DNA of 47,061 nt from an uncultured Clostridia bacterium (GTDB taxonomy: Bacteria; Bacillota; Clostridia; TANB77; CAG-508), in contig CALXJV010000002.1 in the NCBI GenBank assembly GCA_944388715.1, forward strand, positions 1 through 47,061, read 5' to 3'. Position numbers and translations under genes: made by a program. Of the stretch, positions 4,127 to 38,652 are shown piece by piece. Position 1 is the stretch's first letter. Every line of letters starts with the position of its first letter. The notes beneath the pieces were generated by a model, which worked only from the letters and a program-made list of their open reading frames with translations, was not told where the DNA came from and ran no database searches.

Positions 4127-5770
4127 TTATCCTTCAATCACATTCAAAATCTGTTTTTCTAAGTCTTTTATCTTTTCATTAATTCTGAATATGTCTTCAT
4201 CTCTCAAATTTTCATCTTGTAAATCTTGATTTACATAGACTTCCATATCTTTTAACTCGTCTTTTAGTTTTCCTAATCTTTGTAATACTTCTGACTTAAT
4301 AGTTTTATTTACTTTTCTTTGTATCTTATTAGTCATTACTATTTCATCATTAAACTCGTAAGTTTCTCCAAATTCTGGTATTGTAACCCCTATACCTGTT
4401 TCTGTTATAATCTTATCAGCTAATACATCTTGAGATTCTGGTTCTCCATGTACTAAAAAGATATGTTTTGGTTTCTTTATATAAGAATATATACAATTCA
4501 TTAATAATTCTTGGTCAGCATGTCCTGAATATCCTTCTATATATTCTATTCTTGCATTTACTGCAATTTCTTCTCCAAATATTTTTACTGTTTTTGCTCC
4601 ATTTACTATACTATATCCTAATGTTCCTGGTGCTTGATAACCAACAAAAAGTATTGTACTTTTAGGATTCCACAAATTATGTTTCAAATGATGTTTTATT
4701 CTTCCTACTTCACACATACCACTTGCTGATATTATTATACTTGGTGTTTGGTCTTCATTTAGTTCTTTTGATTCTTCTGCTGTTCTTGTAAATTTTAATC
4801 CTGGAAATTCTAGTGGGTTATCTCCTCTCATTATTTCTTCTTTTGTTTCTTCATCAAATAGTTCTGTATTTTCTCTAAATACTTCTGTTGCAGATATTGC
4901 AAGAGGACTGTCAACAAACACTGGGACTTTCATTAATCTTTTATATTTTCTTCTAAATTCATCGTCATCATGTTCATCTTTTAAATTATTAATTTCATAT
5001 AATATTTCTTGTGTTCTTCCAACTGCAAATGATGGAATTACAACTGTTCCTCCATTGTCTAATGTTTCTGAAACTACATCTAAAAAGATTTGTGCTTTTT
5101 CATCATTTCTCATATGTAATCTGCTTCCATATGTTGATTCCATAACAAGAAAATCTGTATCTTCTATCATCGTTGGAGGACTTAGAAGTGGTATATCATT
5201 ATTTCCAATATCTCCAGTAAATACTGTCTTGGTTTCTTTATCTCCTTCTTTTACCCACATCTCTATTATGCTTGAACCTAACATATGTCCTGCGTCATTA
5301 AATCTCACATGTATTTCTGGTGTTATTTCTATAATTTGATCATATTGGACAGGTTCAAATATTTCCAAACATCTTAGTGCATCTTCTGCTGTGTATATTG
5401 GATCTATTGGTTCTTCACCTTTTCTTTTTCTTTTTTTATTTTTCCATTCTGCTTCTGTTTCTTGTATATGTCCACTATCAGGTAACATCAATGCACATAA
5501 ATCACATGTTGCTTTATGGGCATATATTTTATTTCTAAATCCTTCATTATATAATTTAGGTATTCTTCCTGAATGGTCTATATGTGCATGTGTTAAAAGC
5601 ATAAAGTCTATTTCTGTTGGATTAAACTCAAATTCTTGACTATTTTCCATTTCTTGTTCAGCTTTTCCTTGCCACATACCACAATCAACCAAAAATTTTT
5701 TACCAGCACCTTCAACTAAAAAATTTGACCCTGTTACTGTTCTAGTTGCTCCTAAAAATGTAACTTTCAT
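4127..5770 (-). CDS. MBL-fold beta-CASP hydrolase (RNA-metabolising metallo-beta-lactamase family)
   Basis: 547-aa ORF with HAHIDHSG (HxHxDH), ESTYG and SGHADQ motifs. It has a C-terminal coiled-coil tail of about 90 aa. Confidence 0.8.
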   Translation of the reverse strand: MKVTFLGATRTVTGSNFLVEGAGKKFLVDCGMWQGKAEQEMENSQEFEFNPTEIDFMLLTHAHIDHSGRIPKLYNEGFRNKIYAHKATCDLCALMLPDSGHIQETEAEWKNKKRKRKGEEPIDPIYTAEDALRCLEIFEPVQYDQIIEITPEIHVRFNDAGHMLGSSIIEMWVKEGDKETKTVFTGDIGNNDIPLLSPPTMIEDTDFLVMESTYGSRLHMRNDEKAQIFLDVVSETLDNGGTVVIPSFAVGRTQEILYEINNLKDEHDDDEFRRKYKRLMKVPVFVDSPLAISATEVFRENTELFDEETKEEIMRGDNPLEFPGLKFTRTAEESKELNEDQTPSIIISASGMCEVGRIKHHLKHNLWNPKSTILFVGYQAPGTLGYSIVNGAKTVKIFGEEIAVNARIEYIEGYSGHADQELLMNCIYSYIKKPKHIFLVHGEPESQDVLADKIITETGIGVTIPEFGETYEFNDEIVMTNKIQRKVNKTIKSEVLQRLGKLKDELKDMEVYVNQDLQDENLRDEDIFRINEKIKDLEKQILNVIEG

Positions 5771-5827
5771 AAGATTCCTCCTTGTACTAAAAATTTATAG
5801 AATATTAATCTATCAACATTCTACCTA

Positions 5828-6268
5828 GCAATTTTGAAATTGTGAATGTTAACATTATTATTTACATCCTCAAATTTATTTTATAGAATGTATATATATT
5901 AATATTGAATGAATTTCGAATGTGATTGGAGAATGATTAGAAAATCTTAAATAATTTTTAGAACAAAAGCGACATGATTTATTCACTTTATCATTTTAGC
6001 TAACTAATATGTCGCGTTTTTGTTCGTGTGCCAATTTTACGTAAGTAAAATTGTGTACAACTAATTTTAATATATTAGAAAGTTTTTGTAACTTTCTAAT
6101 ATATTGTAAATGTTCGCGCCGAGCATAGCGAGGGCTAAGTGAAAGGGTGCCATAAAATTATTTTAGATTTTCTTATCTTTCGTATTGAGCCGAGAAATTC
6201 ATGAAATATTAATATATATACATTGTTATAAAGCATTTAAATTATAAATTGCACATATTAACCCTTAT
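5828..6268. repeat. Long imperfect foldback element E1 (core arms 5881-5960 / 6153-6231)
   Basis: Arms of about 80 nt pair at roughly three quarters of positions when aligned by eye. They enclose three internal hairpins: 5961-6025; 6032-6053; and 6069-6105 with a perfect 16-bp stem. A GC-rich block lies at 6113-6151. The element fills the whole intergenic region. Confidence 0.7.
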
Positions 6269-7852
6269 TTAAGTAAAAATTTTTATCTTTTTATTAAACT
6301 TTATTTCTAAATCCTTTTTATTTATATTTCCCATTTCTTTTATTTCTATTTTTTCTTCAAAAACATCATCATCAAAAAATTGAATATAATATTTATCTTT
6401 TTCCTTTATCAGTTTTATATAGATTTCTTCTAATGAAATTGCTCTTATATTAAAGATGTTTTTTAATATTTCATCATCTATTTCTTCTTTTTTAGATATT
6501 GGAATTATCACTTTTAATTCCTGTGCTTTTTTTATTAATATCTCTCTGGTTTCTTTTAATTCTTTGTCTAATTCCTCAACTTCATTTATATTTTTTTCTT
6601 CACTAAAAGGAAGTAAGCAGTAATATCTAAATTCATAAATATAATCTAATATTTCAGATTTATTTTCAATTTTACTAATGATTGTTTTATAACATTTTAA
6701 AAAGATTTTTTGTAATTTAATTGTCATTTTATTTATTTCTTTTTCTAAGTCTTTTATATCTAATAATTTTAAATATTCATATTTTTCTTCTAATTCCTTT
6801 TTGTATTGTACAAATTTTTTAGGATTCATTAATTGATTAAGTCTTTCTATTTCTTCTATTTTTTCTGCTCTTTCATCAGCCATTAATTTAGATAATATTC
6901 TTGCACTAAATATTTTTTTCTGCAATGGTAATTTTTCATTTCTTTTTATATATTCTTTTTGAAGCATTTCTTTATTATTTACAGTTTCATCTATGATTTT
7001 TATTTCTTCTGTTAGTTCTCTTTTTTGATCTGTTATCATTTGTATAAATTGTTGTCTATTATCAATCTTATCTAATTTTTCTTCAATTTCTTTCTTTTGT
7101 TTTTCATATTCTTCTCTTTCTTTTGGATTATATTTTAATTCTAAAAGCATTGATAATTTTTTCATTATTGTTATAAAATCTTTTTGATTTTTTGCTCCAT
7201 ATTTTTCTTCAAATCTAATTTTAAACATTTCCATATAATCTATTATAAATTCTTTATTGTCTATCCATTTTTCTAAAAAGTCATATCCTAATAACATTCT
7301 TAAATTTTGATATAACAGATTATAATTAACACTTTCTATTTCATTTCTAATTGTTGTCCAAGAATATCCATTAAAGTCTCTTAATGGTTCGACTGTATCA
7401 ATATTATTTCCAAAATTAATAGCATTTGATAAAGTCTTGTCGATTATTTGATAATCATCTTTTATGATTTTGTCGTTTTTACTTATTTTTGCTATACAAT
7501 ATAATAATTTTCTTTCTATTGGATAACATATAATTCTTTTTATATCTTTCTCTACTAAAAATGTTCTGTCTCCTAAGATTTCATTTGCTTCTGAATTCAT
7601 TCTACATATTTTAATATTTTCACAATTTTCTTTTATCATTGTAATAAATCTTGTGATATATTCTTCCTTTGTTTCTACATGTCTTTTTACTTTCTCATAA
7701 TCTTTATATGAACTTTCTATTTTGTATAATATATTAAGGAGAAGATTTTTCGCATTTTCATCAAAGGTTTTCTTTTCTAATATACTTTCAAGTTCATTCT
7801 TATAATCTCTCTTTACTATTTTATTTAATAGCTTTTCTTTTTTCTTTTGCAT
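6269..7852 (-). CDS. Uncharacterised K/E-rich, coiled-coil-rich protein
   Basis: 527-aa uninterrupted ORF. I recognise no motif. The RBS-like sequence AAGGAGAGGAAA precedes the ATG. Confidence 0.6.
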   Translation of the reverse strand: MQKKKEKLLNKIVKRDYKNELESILEKKTFDENAKNLLLNILYKIESSYKDYEKVKRHVETKEEYITRFITMIKENCENIKICRMNSEANEILGDRTFLVEKDIKRIICYPIERKLLYCIAKISKNDKIIKDDYQIIDKTLSNAINFGNNIDTVEPLRDFNGYSWTTIRNEIESVNYNLLYQNLRMLLGYDFLEKWIDNKEFIIDYMEMFKIRFEEKYGAKNQKDFITIMKKLSMLLELKYNPKEREEYEKQKKEIEEKLDKIDNRQQFIQMITDQKRELTEEIKIIDETVNNKEMLQKEYIKRNEKLPLQKKIFSARILSKLMADERAEKIEEIERLNQLMNPKKFVQYKKELEEKYEYLKLLDIKDLEKEINKMTIKLQKIFLKCYKTIISKIENKSEILDYIYEFRYYCLLPFSEEKNINEVEELDKELKETREILIKKAQELKVIIPISKKEEIDDEILKNIFNIRAISLEEIYIKLIKEKDKYYIQFFDDDVFEEKIEIKEMGNINKKDLEIKFNKKIKIFT

Positions 7853-7872
7853 TTTCCTCTCCTTTCTTTTAG

Positions 7873-7930
7873 AGTCTTAGTGGATAGACCTTTAAATTCC
7901 TGTTTTTAGAAACTTTGAAACAAATCCCTA
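7873..7930. repeat. Degenerate copy of the TAATCCCT/GTCCC repeat (family B)
   Basis: TAAATTCCTGTTTTTAGAAA...AAATCCCTA aligns with CTAATCCCTGTTTTTAGGAA...TAATCCCTA of the copy at 42260-42318. Confidence 0.35.
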
Positions 7931-8075
7931 ATTCATTGTATTTTCAAATTATTTTCTTCTAACGGCAAGATTTTTTCAAAATAGTAATATTTCCTTCTTT
8001 TTTCATTATATCTCTCCGTATATTTTGATATTTGAATTCATGGCTAAAAAGAATTTTGCAATTCTTAAGGCGTTA

Positions 8076-8134
8076 CAAGGTCCGTCCCCTGTTCCCTGAT
8101 TTTAGGGATTTTTAGGACCGTCCCTAAATCCCTA
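8076..8134. repeat. Family B intergenic repeat, copy B1
   Basis: CAAGGTCCGTCCCCTGTTCCCTGATTTTAGGGATTTTTAGGACCGTCCCTAAATCCCTA. Its last three bases are the complement of the ftsK TAG stop codon. Confidence 0.8.
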
Positions 8135-10570
8135 TTCTGTTGTAGTACTACTTCCCATTTTAAGTTCATTTAATTTGTCTAAAGTCATTAGTACTTCTCT
8201 AGGTTTACTTCCTTGATATCCTGATATTACTCCTCTTTCTTCCATTTGGTCTATAATTCTACCAGCTCTTGCATATCCAACTTTAAATCTTCTTTGTATA
8301 AATGATGTTGATGCTTGTCCAGTTTCTACTACTGTTTGAATTGCGTCCATTAAAAATGGATCTGTTTCATCATCTTCTGATTGTTCTTGTGCTAATTCTT
8401 TATCTGTTTTATTACTATTTTCTATACTTTCCAATATGTCTTCACTATATGTAGCTGTTCCATTAGATTTTACAAAGTCTACTATTTTTTCTACTTCTTC
8501 ATCAGATACAAATGCTCCTTGTACTCTTGAAGGTTTTGGTGCTCCAGAAGGGAAAAATAACATATCTCCTTTTCCTAAAAGTTTTTCTGCTCCTACTGTA
8601 TCTAATATTGTTCTTGAGTCTACTTGTGATGATACTGCAAAAGCAATTCTAGATGGAATATTTGCTTTTATTAATCCTGTGATTACATCAACAGATGGTC
8701 TTTGTGTTGCAATTACTAGATGCATTCCTGCTGCTCTTGCTTTTTGTGCTAATCTACATATTGCTTCTTCAACATCTTTTGCTGCTACCATCATTAAGTC
8801 TGCTAACTCATCAACTATGATTACTATTTGAGGAAGTTTTCCTACTCCTTCTTCTTTTTCTATTAATTTATTATATCCTTTTAAGTCTCTTACCCCTTTT
8901 GTTGCAAATTTATTATATCTGTCATCCATTTCTTGAACAGCCCAAGCCAATGCTCCTGCTGCTTTTTTAGGGTCTGTTACAACTGGTATTAATAGATGTG
9001 GTATTCCATTATATACAGATAATTCAACTACTTTTGGATCTACCATTACCAATTTTACTTCACTTGGTTTGGCATTATATATTATACTTGTTATTATTGT
9101 ATTTATACATACACTTTTTCCAGATCCTGTGCTACCTGCTATTAATACATGTGGCATTTTTGCAATATCTGCAAGTTGTGGGTTACCTGCTACATCTTTT
9201 CCTAATGCTATTGTTAGTTTTGATTTATTGTTTTGGAATTCTTCACTTTCTAGTACTTCTCTTAAGTGTACTGTTTCTTTTTCTTTATTAGGAACTTCAA
9301 TTCCAACTGCTTGTTTTCCTGGTATTGGTGCTTCTATTCTTATTGTTTCTGCTGCTAGATTTAGAGCTATATCATCTGCTAAATTAGCAATTTTACTAAC
9401 TCTTACACCTTCTGCTGGTTTTAATTCATATCTTGTAATTGCTGGTCCCACTGAAACATTTTCTACTTTTGCTGATACTCCAAAACTGTATAGGGTTTTT
9501 TGTAATTTAGTAGCTGTGTCTGTTAATGCTTTTGCCCCTCCTTTTAGTGGTTTTGCTTTAGCTTTACTTAATAATTCTACTGGTGGGTATTCATAATGTT
9601 CATCTTCAACTACCATTGCATGTTCTAGTTGAAGAACTTCTCTTTTCTTTTCTTCTTTCTTTTCTTCTTCTTGTTTAAATAAATTGTTTTCTATAACATC
9701 TGGTTCCATTTGTTTTTTACTATCTCTTGTTAATGGTTCTAAATCATCTTTTGAATGATCATATTTCTTTAATTTTTTTGGATTTTCTTGTTCATCTAGT
9801 ATTCTTCCTCCAAAATTAATCTTTATTTGGTTTTCCATTTGTTCTTTTTCTTCTTTTGCTTTTGCTATCTTCTCTGCTTTTATTCTTGCTCTTTCTTCCA
9901 TTCTTTCTTCACGTTCTCTTTTTCTTCTCTCTTGAGCTGTTTCTTTTATATTTTCTTTTTTTCTTTCTTCTCTTTCTTCTAGTCTTTCCTCTTTTCTCTC
10001 TTCAAATCTTTCTACAAATCTATTTATTAAATCTGTCATACTTATTCCAAATGTGAAAACTAAAAATACAACCGCTATTCCTATACAAAGTATTACTGCT
10101 CCGACATCTCCTAATAATTTTGCTAATGGAACTGCTGCTACTGCACCTATTGCTCCTCCTCCTTTACTTTGTGAGCCTAAATAGTATGCATCTTTTACTA
10201 CTTCTGATAGTTCTTTTCCTGATTGTAATTCTCCACTAGAAATCTGGAATACACTAAACAAGACAGATAAACTGACAATAAATATTACATATTGTATAAG
10301 TTTAGATGTCAATGTGTCTCTTTCATCTGTTGCAAGTTTTATTCCTATTGCAAAACCTCCTATTGGAAGTATATATTGCATTATCCCAAACATTCCTCCT
10401 AATATCTCATTTAATTTTGCACCAATTACTCCAGATTTAGTATATATTAAAACACCTAATAATAAACTTAGCATAATTATAACTACAATAGCTAAATCTA
10501 ATTTACTTGCTGTTTTTTTGCTTTTTTTGTATCTTCTTTTTTTTGCCATTTCTATCATCCCTTCTGCCAC
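8132..10570 (-). CDS. ftsK: DNA translocase FtsK/SpoIIIE
   Basis: N-terminal transmembrane (TM) segments, a K/E-rich linker, Walker A GSTGSGKS, and a C-terminal winged-helix gamma domain ([22 protein letters not shown]). The true start may be the ATG at 10549 (MAKKRRY). Confidence 0.9.
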
Positions 10571-10860
10571 ACAAACGTATAAAATTCACTTCGCGAAAAC
10601 TTTTCTCTACATTTCTAATTTTACTATATTTATTTAAGTTTTTAAAGAAATGTAAAAATTTGTCGACGCGAAAAATTGCGTAGCAATTTTTATATGTAAC
10701 GTTGTTTCTAATCGAATAAGAAAAACTTGATTTTTCTTTTGAAAATAAAATATTTTATTTTCTCTTTGAGCCTAAGCACCTTAATCACTTTCTATAATTT
10801 ATTAAAAGTCAGAAATCAAAAGTCCTAGTTTCTTTGACTTCTGAATCTGACTTCTGATTA

Positions 10861-13138: not shown

Positions 13139-13232
13139 AAAAAAACCTCCTAATTTACTTCATTTGTATTCATTTGTACTAAGTATCTACTTTTTTTCCT
13201 AATATGTCAATAGTTTTTTAAAATGTAATATT

Positions 13233-13261
13233 ATTTTAATATTTTTGTAACATTTTTGTAA
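13233..13261 (-). promoter_or_regulatory. Putative sigma-A promoter for sepF
   Basis: The minus strand reads TTACAA-17 nt-TAAAAT, about 95 nt upstream of the sepF ATG. Confidence 0.45.
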
Positions 13262-13326
13262 TATTTAGCTCATAATATAAAATCATATATAATATATTTT
13301 TTCTATTTTGTTATGTGACGTGGAAT

Positions 13327-13630
13327 GGATGTACGTCGCCAATTTCATTAAGTTAAATATTGTAAAAAATGCTATAAGGGAAATATATAATATAAAAAAT
13401 GAACGATTTTGCGTATCTAAATTTGAATTAGAAATTCTTAAAGAAAAAAAGGTGTGATATGCACGGTACTCTCGATAAGAGAGGGTCTGAGTGCAAGAAC
13501 ACCTCTTTTTCTTTCAGAATTTCTTTGAAAATTTAGCTTATACAAAATTGTGAATGACTTTATATTATATATTTCCCTTTTAGTCTCATTCTTTACTAAC
13601 CATTAACTTATTGAAATTGGCGACATCGCC
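13327..13630. repeat. Long imperfect foldback element E3
   Basis: Arms of about 120 nt (13334-13455 / 13499-13628) pair around the GC-rich apex GATATGCACGGTACTCTCGATAAGAGAGGGTCTGAGTGCAAGAAC. The arm sequence resembles E1. Confidence 0.75.
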
Positions 13631-14913
13631 TATTCTACTTTACTTAAGTCTGGATTTAATATTATTTCATCATATAGTGCTATCTTTTTATATGATATTA
13701 TTTCTTCATTTGTAAATCCTAGTTCTTTTAATTCTTCTGTATCATATGGTTCTACAATAGAATATTTTTCTCCTTCTTCTTTTACTTTAACTAGAATTTT
13801 ATTCAAATATCCAGCTCTATTTTGCACCACATATGCCAAATCATCTTGTTTTGCAATAGCCTGATTAGGAATTTTCAATCCAGTTTCACTCCACCAAATC
13901 AAATCAAATGAAATTTTCCTATAACTTAATAATTCCTCAACACCTTTTTCTATTTTCAAAACTAGTACTCTATCTCCATTTTCCTCTTGTAGAATGTAAG
14001 TTATCTCTGCTGAAACTTCTGAACCACTTGGCAATCTTACTTTTACATCATCTCCTACTTGTGCACTCTGTGCCTGTTCTGTATTTGTTACTGTTGCAAT
14101 ATAACAATATGTATTATCAACAATTTTTCCACTTTCTTCACTAGTAGACACTACTTTTCCAGTTTTCAAATCCAAACTTTCTAAATATTCTTTTGTCAAA
14201 GTAGAAAGACATTCTTCTGTTGGTTTCAACACATCTTCTAATCCATCAACTTTATATGATACCACTCCACTTTTACTGGAATTTACATATTCAGCTCCGG
14301 AATTTAGTTCATTCTCATAATTTTTTCTTTCTTCAATTAATTGTTTTAAATATGAACCTTGTGGACTTAAATCTCCAGCAATATTAGCTTTTTTGGTAAT
14401 CAATTCATTAATTTCTTTTTTGTATTCTTCTAATCTTGTTGTATCATTAACATTACTTATTTCTAATAATTTTTGTTCAATTTGTGTTTCTATAGATTTC
14501 ATATCACTTGTAAATAAGTCTGTTTCATTAGTCATTGCTTCTTGTATTTTTGTATCTAATTCTGCAATTTTTTCTTTCAATGAATCTTCATTTTTTGTAT
14601 AATATCTAAATACTGCTTCATTAACAGCAACTTTTTCTCCTTCTGTTTTTATTTTTTCCATTCCATTTTTATAATTTTGTCCTTGTATAATCGTCTCATC
14701 TCTTATTACATATCCTACATCTGTTTCTTCTGAATACAATGTTCCTTCTTCTACTGTGAAAATATCTGTCGGTTGCTTGATTAATAAATATATTGTATAA
14801 GCTAGATATATTGCTATTAGTCCTATAACTATATATATAATTATTTTTTTATTTAATTTTTTCTTTTTTCTCTCTTGTTCTTTTTCTAAAAACTCTTTTT
14901 TCTCTTCTTCCAA
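13630..14913 (-). CDS. Single-pass membrane protein with coiled coil and barrel-sandwich-like region (HlyD-like)
   Basis: 427-aa ORF with a TTG start after AAAGGA. It has one N-terminal TM segment (IIIYIVIGLIAIYLAYTIYLLI). The family assignment is tentative. Confidence 0.5.
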   Translation of the reverse strand: MEEEKKEFLEKEQERKKKKLNKKIIIYIVIGLIAIYLAYTIYLLIKQPTDIFTVEEGTLYSEETDVGYVIRDETIIQGQNYKNGMEKIKTEGEKVAVNEAVFRYYTKNEDSLKEKIAELDTKIQEAMTNETDLFTSDMKSIETQIEQKLLEISNVNDTTRLEEYKKEINELITKKANIAGDLSPQGSYLKQLIEERKNYENELNSGAEYVNSSKSGVVSYKVDGLEDVLKPTEECLSTLTKEYLESLDLKTGKVVSTSEESGKIVDNTYCYIATVTNTEQAQSAQVGDDVKVRLPSGSEVSAEITYILQEENGDRVLVLKIEKGVEELLSYRKISFDLIWWSETGLKIPNQAIAKQDDLAYVVQNRAGYLNKILVKVKEEGEKYSIVEPYDTEELKELGFTNEEIISYKKIALYDEIILNPDLSKVE

Positions 14914-15090
14914 TTGTTTATCATTCCTTTCGATTGAATGTTAAAAACGTGTGAAAACACCAAAAATACACGCTTTAATACCTCTAAAGAAATCTATCCA
15001 CTTTTTATATTCATAGTATTACTATTAAAACTAATTTTAAATAAAATTATATTTAATACATTATAAATATTTTTTGTAAAACGTCTGAGA

Positions 15091-19102: not shown

Positions 19103-19279
19103 CGTTTCCTCCTTCTTGTAATCATTTACACTATTGGTCATATTATATCATTATCTCATTAAATTTGTATAGTTTTTTGCAAAGAATTTAAAAATTTGTT
19201 ACTATTTAGTCGTTAATATTCACAGTCTTAAATTTTTTCTATAGAACGTATATGTTAATATCTAACTGCGAATTATTTT

Positions 19280-24586: not shown

Positions 24587-25636
24587 TTACTTAATTTTCC
24601 CTCCTCCTAAAACAATTCCTTCTTCATCATAAAATACAACAGACTGTCCTGGTGTTATTGCTCTTTGTGGTTCTTGAAATATAACTTTTGTTTTATTATT
24701 TTCGTTAATTACTTTTGCCTTTGCTTCTTTTGCTCTATATCTAATTTTTGCAAAACATTCTATTCCTTCTTCTAATCTATTTTCTACATTGATAATCCAA
24801 TTCAAGTTAATAGCTTCTAATTCACTATTATATAACTCTTTCTCTGTACCAACAATTACTTGATTTTTATCAATATCTAATTTTATTACATATAAAGGTT
24901 CTTTATATGATATTCCTAAACCTTTTCTTTGACCTATCGTATAATTAATTAATCCATTATGCATTCCTAAAACTTCACCTGTTGTTAAAACAATTTTCCC
25001 TTTTTTAGGTTGCTTTTTCATATTTTCTTTTAAAAATCTTTGATAATCATCATCTTTTATAAAGCATATTTCTTGACTATCTTTTTTATTTGCAATTTCT
25101 AATCCATATTCTTCTGCTAATTCCCTTGTCCTGTCTTTGCTTATATTGTCTTGTAAAGGAAATATTATATACTCTATTTTTTCTCTAGGCATGGTATATA
25201 AAAAATATGTCTGGTCTTTTTTCTCTTCATTAGATTTTCTTAAAACATATTGTTGATATTTTTCAGAATATTCTTTTTTAGCATAATGTCCTGTTGCTAT
25301 ATATTTACACCCTAATTCTTTTGCTTTTTCATAGAAAACTCCAAATTTCAGGTATTTGTTACATTCTACACAAGGATTTGGTGTTTTTGCGTTTTCATAT
25401 TCTTTTATAAATTTATCTATTACTTGACATCTAAATTCTTTTCTGCAATCAAAAACATGATGTTCTATCCCTAGTTTTTTACATACATTTTTCGCATCTT
25501 CTATTGATTGCTCATTTGGTTCTTCTAATAAATTCATTGTACATCCAATTACTTCATATCCTGTCTTTTGTAAGAGAATTGCAGATACAGAGCTATCTAC
25601 TCCTCCACTCATTCCTAATAATACTTTTTCTTTCAT
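24587..25636 (-). CDS. mnmA: tRNA 2-thiouridine(34) synthase MnmA
   Basis: PP-loop GMSGGVDSS and full-length MnmA-like sequence. Confidence 0.9.
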   Translation of the reverse strand: MKEKVLLGMSGGVDSSVSAILLQKTGYEVIGCTMNLLEEPNEQSIEDAKNVCKKLGIEHHVFDCRKEFRCQVIDKFIKEYENAKTPNPCVECNKYLKFGVFYEKAKELGCKYIATGHYAKKEYSEKYQQYVLRKSNEEKKDQTYFLYTMPREKIEYIIFPLQDNISKDRTRELAEEYGLEIANKKDSQEICFIKDDDYQRFLKENMKKQPKKGKIVLTTGEVLGMHNGLINYTIGQRKGLGISYKEPLYVIKLDIDKNQVIVGTEKELYNSELEAINLNWIINVENRLEEGIECFAKIRYRAKEAKAKVINENNKTKVIFQEPQRAITPGQSVVFYDEEGIVLGGGKIK

Positions 25637-25769
25637 AAAATTTATATCCTCTCTTATTTTATAGTAAGTTCTTTAACTAACTTATACTAAAAATTCAAAT
25701 TTCATGTAAATAAAATTTGTGTACAACCATTTTAATTATATGAAATAGTTTATATTTTTTGTTACCAAT

Positions 25770-26030
25770 TTAATCTATCTTATATTTTTCTTTAATTTCT
25801 TCTAAAGCTTTTGATAATTGATCTGGGCATGATGTTCCTTTTGTACCACATGGAATTCCTTTTAATCTTCTTATTGCTTCATTTATATTCATACCTTCTA
25901 TCAATCTTGAAACTCCTACAGTATTTCCTGCACATCCTCCAATAATTGTTAATTTTTTTATAATATTTCCATCTAATTCAATTATCATCTCTCTTGAACA
26001 AACTCCACTTGGTTTATATCTATACTCCAT
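25770..26030 (-). CDS. TSCPD-domain small protein (TIGR03905-like)
   Basis: SGVCSREM...GGCAGN...GIPCGTKGTSCPDQL. The start was moved to the ATG at 26030, which follows GAAGGAGG. Confidence 0.75.
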   Translation of the reverse strand: MEYRYKPSGVCSREMIIELDGNIIKKLTIIGGCAGNTVGVSRLIEGMNINEAIRRLKGIPCGTKGTSCPDQLSKALEEIKEKYKID

Positions 26031-26053
26031 TTTTTCCTCCTTCAAAATTTTTC

Positions 26054-26096
26054 AAAAAGAAAATCCAGTTCACTGAACTGGATTTTCTTTTTTTAA
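26054..26096 (-). terminator. Rho-independent terminator after the PIN-domain gene
   Basis: Near-perfect 14-bp stem GAAAATCCAGTTCA/TGAACTGGATTTTC, flanked by A-run and T-run, so it could work in both directions. Confidence 0.7.
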
Positions 26097-26105
26097 AAAG
26101 TTAAT

Positions 26106-27155
26106 TTAATATATAATATCAGTTATTTTATCTTTTATACTTTCATCAATCCATTCATCAATATACATTTTGTTCAATCCAACATATTCTTTATCTTGTT
26201 TCAAAATTTTTCCATCTTTTATATTTAATTTAACTACATGTATTGACCCCTTTCGCGCTACAGGAATAACTAATATAATTTCTTCTATTGATTGTTCTAT
26301 TTGTTGTTCATCTGGTTCTATTTCTTTATATTCTCCTTCTTTCAAATAAAATACTTTAGCATTATCATTATATCTTTTTACTATTACATTTGTTCCTTCT
26401 AGAGAAATTTCTATACCTCCCTCAGAATAAGTATTATCTCTTTTCCTTTTAGAATTTAAAATTTTTTCTTCTTGGGTAATAGATTTTTTTTCTATATTGG
26501 TAGTTTCAAAGACCTCATCAGCTACATTATTTTCTTTTCTTTTTAAAACAAATTCAACTGGTTTATATAGAATATACTCTAATCCAAAAGCATCTGCCTT
26601 ATTTGCCAATATTGTGTCTGCTGTCAAAATCGTTGGTCTCTTGGTTGCTTCTGTAATCGATAAATATTGGATTATTACATCATCTGGATACATATTTTTT
26701 TCATATCCAGCAAATGGAATCAAATGATATTTTTCTTTATCTACTAGAAATAAATTAGAATACCATCTGATTTTTTCTGCCATTTTCCTAGAATATAAAT
26801 CTTCTTGATTTATATCCTTTTTCTTGTCCATTTCATTCAGGGTTGACAATAATATAATGACATTCTTTGCATTTTCAATCAATTCAATTGTTTTGTCATG
26901 TCCAAAAACACATGTATCAATTATTAACTTGTTCAAATCTACATTTTGTGATGCAATAAATTCAAACCTTTCTTCTGAACACATTGAATCTCTTTTTTGT
27001 AGGATACTTTCGTATTTTTCTGCTACTTCGTCTTCACAACCTAATTTTCTAAAATATCCTTTTGATGGTTTATACGGAAATCCTATTACTTTCTTCCGTA
27101 TTTCTTGTGATGATTTTCCTTCCTTTATTAACTTTTCTACTAGTTCTTTCTTCAT
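26106..27155 (-). CDS. PIN-domain protein with unassigned N- and C-terminal regions
   Basis: The acidic pattern IIDTCVF...LSTLNEMD...PDDVII...LTADTILANKA resembles PINc/YlaK-type PIN domains. The C-terminal ~110 aa match nothing I recognise. The start was moved to the ATG at 27155. Confidence 0.5.
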   Translation of the reverse strand: MKKELVEKLIKEGKSSQEIRKKVIGFPYKPSKGYFRKLGCEDEVAEKYESILQKRDSMCSEERFEFIASQNVDLNKLIIDTCVFGHDKTIELIENAKNVIILLSTLNEMDKKKDINQEDLYSRKMAEKIRWYSNLFLVDKEKYHLIPFAGYEKNMYPDDVIIQYLSITEATKRPTILTADTILANKADAFGLEYILYKPVEFVLKRKENNVADEVFETTNIEKKSITQEEKILNSKRKRDNTYSEGGIEISLEGTNVIVKRYNDNAKVFYLKEGEYKEIEPDEQQIEQSIEEIILVIPVARKGSIHVVKLNIKDGKILKQDKEYVGLNKMYIDEWIDESIKDKITDIIY

Positions 27156-32255: not shown

Positions 32256-32861
32256 TTATTTTAACTTCACTTCTCTATATAATATGTAAACTGATGTGTT
32301 TTTGCTATTATCTTTTATTTCCATTTTAGTAGGTTTACCTGTTTTTTTATCTATATATAATGTTTGATATCTAGTATATTTATTATTTTCATTTTCTGTA
32401 TTTAATATTATTTCATCATCATCTTCTTCATATATTTGTTTTTTATTTAATTTATAATTTTCTATAAATGTATTTAAATCTAGGCAATTGTCTGTCATAT
32501 ATTCATAATCATTATATATTTTTGACATATTTATTTTACTATTTTCAACTTTTAATTCATTATCTTTTTTAGTGATTTTTATTCCTTGTATATTTTCTGG
32601 TTCTATTATTTCTTGTTCTGATATATCTGGAAATATGTATTTTTGTTTAATCGTATATCTATTAGTATTTTTATTACTCTTAACTTCTACTTCTATTACT
32701 GTTTCATATGAACTAATATTTAAAATATTATCAATTATTTCTTGACTAGTACTATTATTTCCAATTTTAAGTTTTTTACTCTTATTTATATAAAAAAATA
32801 TGCAAATACAAATTATGATTATAATAATAACTATTATTATTTTTCTTAATAATTTACTCAA
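32256..32861 (-). CDS. Membrane-anchored LolA-fold-like protein (YdcC/GerS-like)
   Basis: 201-aa ORF with a TTG start after AGGAGG and an N-terminal TM segment. The beta-rich body carries the ...SYETVIEVEVKSNKNTNRYTIKQKY... pattern. The assignment rests on pattern and synteny memory only. Confidence 0.4.
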   Translation of the reverse strand: MSKLLRKIIIVIIIIIICICIFFYINKSKKLKIGNNSTSQEIIDNILNISSYETVIEVEVKSNKNTNRYTIKQKYIFPDISEQEIIEPENIQGIKITKKDNELKVENSKINMSKIYNDYEYMTDNCLDLNTFIENYKLNKKQIYEEDDDEIILNTENENNKYTRYQTLYIDKKTGKPTKMEIKDNSKNTSVYILYREVKLK

Positions 32862-37233: not shown

Positions 37234-38652
37234 TTATTCAACAATTTTATGCATGTTTTCTTCACTAGTTCCATCTGCATTTTCTACTGTTGTAATTTCA
37301 ATTTCAGGTCTTATTGAAACCACTGGTCTAAGACCAACCTCTTGATAATTATCATAATAATTATACCCATGTGAAACTGTAAAAGGTTGTCCTTGTAACG
37401 CTTTATCATTTATTGTACAAATTCCAAATTTAGCATTGGTATCTACTACATTAACAAAACGAGAAGCAATCCAATATTCTTTTCCAGTTCCAAAAATCAA
37501 ATCATATACCACACTACTTTTAAAGTTTTCTTCTGAAGTAGGCCAATCAAATCGGTAAAATGTCTGTGTTACAGTTAAGCTTTGACTCGCTTCGGCCATT
37601 TCCTCTTTTGCTCCAGTATTACGTCCATCATCGCTTGTATCTATCCCATCTGTTTTTACACTTTCTGTATCTATACCACTACCATTTTCTTCAGCATATA
37701 AACTTGGATAAACGTTTCCTTCTACCTTTTTTGATTTTCCATATTGTACTCCAGTTCCTTTTCCATAAGAATCTCTTTCACTTTTTCCCTTATCACTTAA
37801 CCAATATTCTATATCTTTTATATTTATATTCCTTGCTTCTACTCCTAAAGAACTATTACTATAAAAATGATTGCATATGCCATTTATAACCAGAACTCCA
37901 TTATTATATCCTAAATATCCACCAAAATGTGGTCCCCAATATGTAGAAGTTTCGCTTATCAAATCTACTGTTCCATCTTCATGAATATTCAATATTCTCC
38001 ACTTCATTCCTTCTACTTGAGTTATCTCTACATCTCCATCAGTATATCCACTTGTATTTTGTGATAAATAATATGTACTAGCAGAGTCATAAGTGTAATT
38101 TACATAGTCTCCTATTTCTAATCCTGGTCTTACTTCTGTTTCTATTTCAACTATATTTACTGCCTCTTCATCCTCTTGTGTATAATCTGTATAATACATC
38201 TTTGTTGTTCCATTTTCATTAACCCCTACACCTTGTACATAAAATATATTATGACTCTTTTGATTTATTACATATATATCCATTAATTCTGATTGGTCAA
38301 TACTGTTATTCTCTTTATATTTTTCATAATCTTTACCATAATTCAATGTTAAACCATCTAAAGCTTTTAAATCTATAATCAAAAATCCATTCACATCATC
38401 ATTTGCCCCTAATGGAAATCTTGATAACATACTTGTATTTGTATATTGAGTACTTGCTGGCAATGCACCATATTGTGAATAATATAATGAAATTTTATCT
38501 CTCAAATTTGAAATATCATTTTGCATATTTGTCAAGTTTTTTACATATATACTATCTTTTGCTGAATAAACTAGCATTCCTGTAACAATCAAAATTATTA
38601 TAACAGCAATTGATAATGTAATTACTGTAATTCCTCTATTCTTTTTTATCAT
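37234..38652 (-). CDS. Large protein with prepilin-like N-terminus (no Glu5)
   Basis: The N-terminus MIKKNRG/ITVITLSIAVIIILIV looks like a class III signal but has Thr at +5. The 440-aa extracellular body ends with the pattern EYWIASRF...GLRPVVSI. Confidence 0.5.
   Translation of the reverse strand: MIKKNRGITVITLSIAVIIILIVTGMLVYSAKDSIYVKNLTNMQNDISNLRDKISLYYSQYGALPASTQYTNTSMLSRFPLGANDDVNGFLIIDLKALDGLTLNYGKDYEKYKENNSIDQSELMDIYVINQKSHNIFYVQGVGVNENGTTKMYYTDYTQEDEEAVNIVEIETEVRPGLEIGDYVNYTYDSASTYYLSQNTSGYTDGDVEITQVEGMKWRILNIHEDGTVDLISETSTYWGPHFGGYLGYNNGVLVINGICNHFYSNSSLGVEARNINIKDIEYWLSDKGKSERDSYGKGTGVQYGKSKKVEGNVYPSLYAEENGSGIDTESVKTDGIDTSDDGRNTGAKEEMAEASQSLTVTQTFYRFDWPTSEENFKSSVVYDLIFGTGKEYWIASRFVNVVDTNAKFGICTINDKALQGQPFTVSHGYNYYDNYQEVGLRPVVSIRPEIEITTVENADGTSEENMHKIVE

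Follow-up and report, generated by a model that had tools for sequence, protein, structure and literature searches.

A long intergenic foldback in an uncultured gut Clostridia genome is a nest of hairpin-forming repeats

We analysed a 47,061-nt stretch of the genome of an uncultured Clostridia bacterium (contig CALXJV010000002.1; the whole stretch is called the window below) and in it a long foldback, E1, which lies in a 498-nt intergenic spacer at positions 5771-6268. The spacer is flanked by a beta-CASP/RMMBL gene (4127-5770, minus strand) and by a 527-aa open reading frame (ORF; 6269-7852, minus strand) without a Pfam match, the neighbours that an earlier note on this DNA had named. The window has a G+C content of 27% and carries nearly all its genes on the minus strand. 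Its Pfam families are typical of housekeeping and cell division: FtsK, RsmD-like, DivIVA, SepF, MiaA, MutL, MnmA, AspS, RodA/FtsW and others; transposase, integrase and reverse transcriptase families were absent from the 30 window ORFs scanned against Pfam. FtsK orthologues group the window with metagenome-assembled genomes of uncultured gut 'Clostridium sp. CAG'-type Clostridia, and the context of E1 is that of a chromosome of low-GC gut Clostridia. The syntenic comparison set comprised 80 FtsK loci, 1.5 Mb in total and about 20 kb per genome; individual relatives are cited by locus number, L001 being a close relative with ~95% DNA identity to the window. The region of the 527-aa ORF aligns with L001 at ~95% DNA identity and in the same position, so this ORF is not part of E1.

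The arms of E1 are imperfect reverse complements, as the earlier note had read from the letters. Positions 5887-5917 are complementary to 6194-6224 (31 nt, 94%) and 5931-5958 to 6154-6181 (28 nt, 89%); a blastn alignment of the arms over 80 nt shows 79% complementarity (E 1e-11), and weaker outer pairing joins 5828-5841 to 6239-6252. The three inner hairpins that had been described (5961-6025, 6032-6053 and 6069-6105) are all present, the last with a perfect 16 bp stem (6069-6084/6090-6105), and so is the GC-rich stretch inside the foldback, which is the apex of the A unit introduced below. The predicted fold energy of the spacer is -133.6 kcal/mol on the plus strand (z -9.0) and -125.9 kcal/mol on the minus strand (z -10.1), and none of 100 shuffled sequences folds as well. 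A single long imperfect hairpin, with z about -9 to -10, is therefore a fair description of 5848-6262. The wider extent once proposed, 5828-6268, stands in part: weak pairing does reach 5828 and 6252, but comparison with relatives places the limits of the element at about 5848-6262. AT-rich DNA yields many weak inverted repeats, and in a window of 27% G+C one might think of chance self-complementarity or of an inert one-off palindrome. This explanation can practically be set aside: the z-scores range from -9 to -19, an inverted-repeat scan found no comparable foldback in the other long spacers of the window, and more than 100 homologues have covarying stems.

Comparison with copies in other genomes resolves E1 into a nested composite of three layers, each of which is a separate dispersed repeat family (Table 1). 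An old miniature inverted-repeat transposable element (MITE), which we call type 1, contains a hairpin element, the A unit, and the apex of the A unit contains a three-hairpin repeat, the B unit. The multi-branched architecture is no single designed fold but comes from the nesting of B in the apex of A and of A inside the older MITE. Matches to the arms of E1 lie at different loci of other genomes. The better-folding strand, called the S strand below, is the plus strand of the window.

Table 1. Layers of E1 and related sequences in the window
Feature	Positions	Strand	Remarks
Outer type-1 MITE, left arm, degenerate	5848-5886	+	starts GTTAACATTATTATTTACATCC; terminal inverted repeat consensus of the family GTTACAATTCACAG; aligned to L084 298-560
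A unit, 5' outer stem arm AATGTATATATATTAATATTGAATGAATTTC	5887-5917	+	94% pairing with 6194-6224; same arms in L084
Conserved 5' bulge and short helix, GAATGTGA-UUGG-AG	5918-5931	+	invariant columns in A1 and A2
5' arm, middle and inner stems, semi-conserved TTAGAAAATCTTAAAT at 5937-5952	5932-5960	+	pairs with 6153-6181
B unit in the A apex, hairpins 5961-6025, 6032-6053, 6069-6105	5961-6107	+	missing from near-identical copies
A unit, GC-rich apex AAAUG-UUCGC(variable mini-hairpin)GUGAA-AGGGUGCC	6108-6152	+	conserved in the family; helices 5-7 covary
3' arm, inner and middle stems, ATTTTAGATTTTCTTA at 6160-6175	6153-6181	+	pairs with 5932-5960
Conserved 3' internal-loop sequence GTATTGAG and CCGA	6182-6193	+	invariant in A1 and A2
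A unit, 3' outer stem arm	6194-6224	+	retained in L001, which lacks the rest of the element
Outer type-1 MITE, right arm, ending ...CACATATTAAC	6225-6262	+	L001 has ...CATGTTAC at that place
Diverged direct copy (80%) of 3' outer arm 6195-6224	5791-5820	+	adjoins the ribosome-binding site of the beta-CASP gene
E2, more distant family member, core 13403-13551	13341-13622	+	flanks ACGTCGCC (13333-13340) and ACATCGCC (13623-13630)
Truncated third copy: type-1 end GTTAATATTCACAG and start of an E1/L084-like 5' arm, no core	19212-19262	+	MutL-FtsX spacer, then unrelated sequence
Fragment like B hairpin 2 and the following conserved TGTGTACAAC	25698-25751	+	blastn 79.6% over 54 nt, E 9e-7; spacer 25636-26106

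The B unit (147 nt) is missing from copies in L084, L013 and L020 that are otherwise near-identical to E1; the sequence of L084 at 298-560 is almost identical to E1 on either side of the gap. A homologous B unit lies at a different position of the apex in L005, and the orthologous L003 is without it. Standalone B copies were found in L013 (9771-9963), L082 (3906-4048) and L051 (20178-20289). The hairpins of the B unit covary, and the linkers between them are conserved (GTGTGC...TGTGTACAAC).

The outermost layer has the appearance of a classical MITE. In the alignment with the type-1 arms of E1, the copy in L084 ends in ATTACAATTCACAG...CTGTAAATCGTAAC, and the consensus terminal repeats of the family are GTTACAATTCACAG...CTGTGAATTGTAAC. 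Type-1 elements measure 40-217 bp without a core and 260-488 bp with one, and are associated with target duplications of 8 bp: L195 has AAACTAAA, and 7 of 8 positions match in L089, L180, L173 and L011. Both ends of the E1 copy (5848-5869 and 6252-6262) are degenerate, which indicates that this outer MITE is old. Terminal repeats of three different classes enclose one and the same A core. In L133, L091, L121 and other loci, the apex of an E2-like core houses an A unit in opposite orientation, and the E2-like core itself lies inside type-1 repeats; such composites form foldbacks of ~460-490 nt. New units thus repeatedly sit at the apex or loop of older hairpins. The diverged copy of the 3' outer arm at 5791-5820 is a remnant of something that happened here earlier, an insertion-type event or a duplication.

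Members of the A family, which was previously uncatalogued, occur widely in uncultured Clostridia of gut and rumen. Iterated nhmmer searches and a covariance model found 17-18 copies in the 80 FtsK loci. Homologues beyond this genome are abundant: a pattern joining the two most conserved core motifs recovered at least 120 metagenome stretches, including human-gut assemblies, with 109 distinct cores among the matches listed. Several contigs carry 2-3 copies each. All copies are intergenic, never inside ORFs, and occur in both orientations relative to the neighbouring genes. The core pattern gave zero matches in viral contigs, the A core is unmatched in PLSDB and INPHARED, and we found no described hairpin MITE of Clostridia in the literature. 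A search of the whole window against Rfam (release 15) returned no match at the gathering threshold; scans of E1, E2 and the uninterrupted L084 copy at relaxed E-values gave sub-threshold matches only, nearly all to generic hairpin (microRNA-type) models.

On the S strand, the A core reads inward from a copy-specific outer stem through an 8-nt bulge (GAAUGUGA), a UUGG:CCGA helix and an AG/GUAUUGAG internal loop to a middle stem with UUAGAAWUUCUUAA, a variable inner stem and the apex AAAAUG-UUCRC(variable mini-hairpin)GUGAA-AGGGUG. The E1 helix of UUGG with CCGA (6190-6193) includes an invariant wobble, which is U.G in 95 of 100 distinct sequences (helix 2). Conservation is concentrated at the centre of the unit, in the bulge, the loops and the apex, and the arms are copy-specific.

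RNAalifold recovered no structure from a plain MAFFT alignment of 104 copies. The alignment used for covariation was built from a hand-annotated seed, from which a covariance model was made, and the model was used to align 110 matches (100 distinct). Standard pairs occupy 90.2% of cells in this alignment, against 63.8% after shuffling and 38-50% with slid partners; 46 of the 52 pairs show changes on both sides, and in helices 3 and 4 of the model double changes occur in 28 of 29 pairs. The covariation score is 0.578, compared with 0.165 for shuffles and 0.08-0.16 for slid controls. An alignment fitted to a model favours structure; this one, however, is anchored on invariant motifs, and its values exceed those of the controls by a wide margin. 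The covariation support for the A core equals that of many curated RNA families.

The fold belongs to one strand. The S strand is the more stable in 96 of the 99 unique copies, by a mean of 12 kcal/mol, and the paired columns contain 301 G.U against 70 A.C combinations (206 against 51 without the invariant wobble). The folding energies and these counts speak against the gene-sense strand as the functional one. Copies are present in both genomic orientations, which argues, with the orientation groups pooled, against a mutation bias linked to replication or transcription. According to the earlier note, an inert repeat would have arm mismatches with neither covariation nor strand bias; the arms of this family have both. 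This means that a single-stranded structure, of RNA or of single-stranded DNA, is under selection. It also bears on the idea that E1 is an invertible, phase-variable promoter bounded by the 31-nt repeats at 5887-5917 and 6194-6224. These repeats flank 276 bp upstream of a gene, like those of known invertons, but the complementarity runs through the whole element and is not confined to two short boundary repeats, only one strand's fold is favoured across copies, the repeat is dispersed over many unrelated spacers and orientations, and there is no recombinase nearby. We regard an inverton as very improbable.

The choice between RNA and DNA is less clear-cut. The A core could be a structured non-coding RNA transcribed from the plus strand, either as a small RNA gene on a mobile cassette or as an RNA that serves the propagation of the element, with the foldback as a by-product. 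Strong covariation in all helices, the strand asymmetry with its invariant U.G wobble, and GC-rich islands within AT-rich DNA are what such an RNA would show, and the conserved bulge and internal loops are typical of protein-binding RNAs. A 10/12 sigma-70-like match (TTTACA-17-TAGAAT, 5861-5889), made up of the type-1 repeat and adjacent sequence, reads into E1 on the plus strand. Having no Rfam family, the RNA would be a new motif. However, the copies lie in either orientation relative to the flanking genes, and the sequence upstream of the core is copy-specific; promoter-like sites occur at chance level and are no commoner than in shuffled sequence, and neither terminators nor a T-run after the stems were found. 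The outer stems are almost perfectly paired and run without a gap for up to 65 bp, and whole foldbacks reach 466-488 nt. As transcripts, the perfect stems of 40-65 bp and the foldbacks of ~470-490 nt would offer substrates to RNase III; as DNA, they resemble young palindromes.

The apex of the A unit is also more telling as DNA. On the S strand, 54 of 109 cores have an xC-GNA-Gx mini-hairpin there, 28 of them the exact GCGAAGC, compared with 7 on the other strand. GCGAAGC is an extraordinarily stable DNA mini-hairpin found at single-stranded DNA priming origins (PMC13037366). It is notable as a DNA hairpin and not as an RNA one, and it points to a hairpin at the DNA level, which is suggestive but not decisive. 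Free orientation, copy-specific upstream sequence and near-perfect 40-65 bp stems likewise favour a DNA-level hairpin, and we consider the RNA explanation unlikely. The earlier note had offered a structured non-coding RNA and a foldback MITE side by side. The MITE-like option is well supported by the dispersed family, the presence and absence of copies in close relatives, the purely intergenic location in both orientations, the lack of an ORF, and the outer terminal repeats with 8-bp duplications. The RNA option is disfavoured, though not dismissed, by the lack of a fixed orientation and of a dedicated promoter or terminator, and by the very long near-perfect stems.

Copies have recently been gained or lost between genomes that are ~95-99.5% identical. 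L031 has a 215-bp copy between flanks that are 99.5% identical to those of L097; L097 lacks it, and there is no duplication at the site. The more distant L044 has a copy there, which implies either a precise loss or a repeated gain. A 486-bp foldback in L068 is lacking in L047 (97.8% identical). In other pairs part of the element persists: a core stump, TCGGTTCAATACATAAT, remains in L067 at the place of a full copy in L072, and of E1 the 3' 70 nt remain in L001. Hairpin-associated deletions are therefore common. We also considered whether the outer stem arose by inverted duplication of a flank (E1 against L001, L068 against L047); this candidate is weakened by the element sequence retained in L001 and L067, which marks them as deletion derivatives. 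The HlyD-sepF spacer holds different family members in L031, L044, L072/L129, L056 and the window, and none in L097 and L001; it is a hot spot for gain and loss.

The family member in that spacer of the window, E2, had been recognized in the earlier note as related to E1 (13327-13630), and the kinship is real: a covariance model built from unrelated copies matches both on the plus strand, at 6059-6203 (69.5 bits) and at 13403-13551 (45.6 bits, E 3e-9). The region of E2 (13300-13640) is a cleaner foldback than E1, with z-scores of -16 and -19. E2 lies in the loop of a terminator-like hairpin that follows the HlyD-family gene. All of its 282-288 bp are missing in L001, which has ACATCACC in the hairpin loop (flanks ~95% identical). 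Judging by their sequence, the flanks ACGTCGCC and ACATCGCC are compatible with an 8-bp duplication; a reading without duplication is also possible.

The position of E2 raises the question of a role for the host, in which adopted hairpins would act in cis as bidirectional terminators or insulators, protect the 3' ends of mRNAs, or serve as priming or processing signals on single-stranded DNA. E1 and E2 both abut a stop codon, E2 inside a terminator-like hairpin, and copies in general are nearer to the stop of one neighbour than to the start of the other (median ~90 nt against ~160 nt where both flanking genes are opposite to the folding strand). In several species a copy occupies the HlyD-sepF spacer, and GCGAAGC-type mini-hairpins occur at single-stranded DNA priming sites. 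Yet the orthologous sites of close relatives are without copies, no T-run follows the stems, and a terminator needs no conserved bulge or loop sequence. The position at gene ends is explained equally well by insertion into terminator loops together with selection against hits in promoters. A host function of this kind is, in our view, quite improbable.

We think it rather probable that E1 is a nest of three non-autonomous, hairpin-forming mobile DNA elements, in which the S-strand hairpin is needed for mobilisation in trans. The order of events would be as follows. An old terminal-repeat MITE, represented by 5848-5886 and 6225-6262, would have received the A unit (~190 nt, now spanning 5887-6224) at its centre, and the A unit would later have received the 147-nt B unit in its apex. 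The hairpin of the S strand, most likely formed in transient single-stranded DNA, would be the substrate of an enzyme encoded elsewhere in the genome, which may recognise it through the conserved bulge and loops. If only copies that keep the fold propagate, the covariation is explained without any function for the host. Hairpin loops may be where new units land by preference or are best tolerated, and foldbacks would then grow longer with each insertion. The repeated central position of new units may reflect targeting of hairpin loops.

Searches for the machinery of such mobilisation returned nothing convincing. No transposase lies next to the copies, and all-against-all clustering of 363 neighbour proteins yielded no recurrent family: the largest cluster has 6 of the 363 members, all housekeeping. 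We looked in 2.3 Mb for an autonomous copy; no terminal-repeat pair flanks an ORF, and pairs of repeats or core halves 0.7-4 kb apart include none that convinces.

Several observations weigh against mobilisation of such hairpins in trans. The mobilising enzyme was not found in the window or near the copies, with ~20 kb searched per genome. The 'empty' sites of L001 (at E1), L047 and L067 keep the 3' arm; they are not cleanly empty but represent deletions or are ambiguous. At B insertions 2-4 nt of the target are replaced, and the A and B units lack sharp ends and a consistent target duplication, their boundaries varying with context; copy-choice or recombination between hairpins, and not true transposition, could thus spread the core. 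A classic MITE is most conserved at its ends, the A unit at its centre. The central position of new units may be a matter of survivorship, if only central insertions keep the composite foldable. The folding strand is antisense to neighbouring genes in 35 cases against 21, a weak excess in which shared ancestry is uncorrected, and which is opposite to the prediction for activity on the lagging-strand template as in IS608. The copy-specific outer stems alone show a weak strand bias (G.T 31 against A.C 18), so that part, and maybe much, of the strand signal is inherited with the core.

A bolder version, which we hold to be doubtful, is that of a novel type of mobile element in bacteria, a gene-less replicator in the form of a single-stranded hairpin. 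The A unit, and perhaps the B unit, would be recognised by its central bulge and loops, not by its ends. It would integrate specifically at hairpin apices, be it in a terminator loop, the centre of a MITE or another A unit, with no fixed target duplication, thereby building fractal foldbacks of growing length; or, equally novel, the core would be a new structured RNA carried on such cassettes. If hairpin-apex targeting and recognition through the centre are confirmed, they would represent a new route of propagation for gene-less DNA, which beside housekeeping genes would also supply terminators, displace promoters and give rise to deletions mediated by hairpins. More generally, serial insertion of small hairpin repeats can explain a striking foldback of 400 nt, and the short intergenic regions of small-genome uncultured gut Clostridia are remodelled by such repeats even between genomes at 99.5% identity. 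Annotation should mask these elements or provide models for them, lest screens for GC islands in AT-rich genomes mistake them for riboswitches or small RNAs.

The window has further features of its own. Three of the 30 ORFs scanned have no Pfam match, all on the minus strand: 6269-7852 (527 aa), 37234-38652 (472 aa) and 32256-32861 (201 aa). Upstream of sepF, on the minus strand, 127 nt at 13139-13265 are conserved at 77-93% identity over ~70 species-level loci, far above the rest of the spacer. They contain three copies of a ATATTACAA-like motif, a promoter-like TTGACA-17-GATACT (13210-13182) and the sepF leader, and are probably a conserved promoter-operator region. The spacer between FtsK and the 527-aa ORF does not align with L001 (window 7871-8151, L001 12420-12589), and it carries a repetitive extragenic palindromic (REP)-like motif, GGACCGTCCC/TTTTTGGGGACGGAC, at 7905-7931 and 8102-8128. 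The same motif occurs in L047, L068, L095, L112, L145 and other loci; in other genomes it makes up the terminal repeats of a further class of foldback and is found in tandem. Relative to L001, the window is longer by 124 bp (14955-15077) in the spacer of the MiaA and HlyD-family genes. L001 in turn has ~220 extra bp (8426-8645) that hold a second copy, at 83% identity, of the region upstream of ftsK (window 10572-10736).

Hairpin MITEs such as Correia/NEMIS of Neisseria, RUP/BOX of pneumococci and ERIC of enterobacteria are 100-500 bp long, lack an ORF, and are intergenic, multi-copy and variable between strains. The E1 family resembles them in being small, ORF-less, multi-copy and able to form long hairpins, and in an outer layer with GTTACAATTCACAG repeats and 8-bp duplications. 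In contrast to them, the A unit is conserved at its centre and has no fixed ends or duplication, its helices covary across subfamilies, and units sit at hairpin apices.

REP doublets that form hairpins (REPINs) are non-autonomous repeats, thought to act as single-stranded DNA, which are mobilised in trans by a single-copy REP-associated tyrosine transposase (RAYT, also TnpA-REP; HUH Y1) (PMC3116915, PMC8266576). The A unit is likewise hairpin-forming, non-autonomous and intergenic, its hairpin is kept by compensatory change, and it persists within a lineage. It differs in architecture: a REP is a palindrome of 20-40 nt with a conserved 5' tetranucleotide and a REPIN measures ~100 nt, whereas the A unit is no REP doublet but one symmetric hairpin of 190-330 nt around a complex, conserved core. 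REPINs have been described from proteobacteria and the A unit belongs to Clostridia; no RAYT (Y1 HUH) gene was found in the window or next to the copies.

With the derivatives of IS200/IS605 (palindrome-associated transposable elements, PATEs, and 'peel and paste' elements) the family shares strand-specific hairpins, insertion without duplication at some sites (L031 against L097), an association with hairpin or REP-like targets and apparently precise loss. In those derivatives the subterminal hairpins of the left and right ends are distinct, and insertion takes place 3' of a fixed tetra- or pentanucleotide. The ends of the A unit are symmetric, the two cleanest junctions (after GATGTAC and after TAATATTT) share no target motif, and the orientation trend relative to genes is not that of activity on the lagging-strand template. 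Integron attC sites also act as single-stranded hairpins, with structure conserved above sequence, bulged bases, a variable terminal structure and one active strand, features that all recur in the A core. An attC site is 57-141 nt long, has RYYYAAC/GTTRRRY boxes and lies at the 3' end of a gene cassette with an integrase nearby; the sequences of the A core are different, its flanking genes are housekeeping genes, and Pfam scans found no integrase family.

Two other comparisons were tried and rejected. A single-stranded promoter or origin of a plasmid or phage (Frpo/ssi, sso), which the long hairpins and a TAGCG motif had led us to suspect, is at odds with the chromosomal families around the element (FtsK, SepF, DivIVA, MutL, MiaA, AspS) and with the lack of PLSDB and phage matches; such a site would lie on a conjugative or rolling-circle plasmid, ahead of leading-region genes or as a lagging-strand origin. 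Retrons, bridge RNAs and omega RNAs were discarded as well, there being no reverse transcriptase or transposase nearby and the combination of conserved loops with variable stems being the reverse of that in guide RNAs.

Targeting of hairpins has precedents: IS1397 and ISKpn1 preferentially enter REP palindromic units at their loops, and class C group II introns preferentially insert behind intrinsic terminators, all of them autonomous and encoding a transposase or a reverse transcriptase. The positions of E2 in a terminator loop, of B in the apex of A, and of A in MITE centres and A-type apices are similar, although these units encode nothing. The A family is therefore new, but it falls within a known general kind, that of non-autonomous hairpin repeats.

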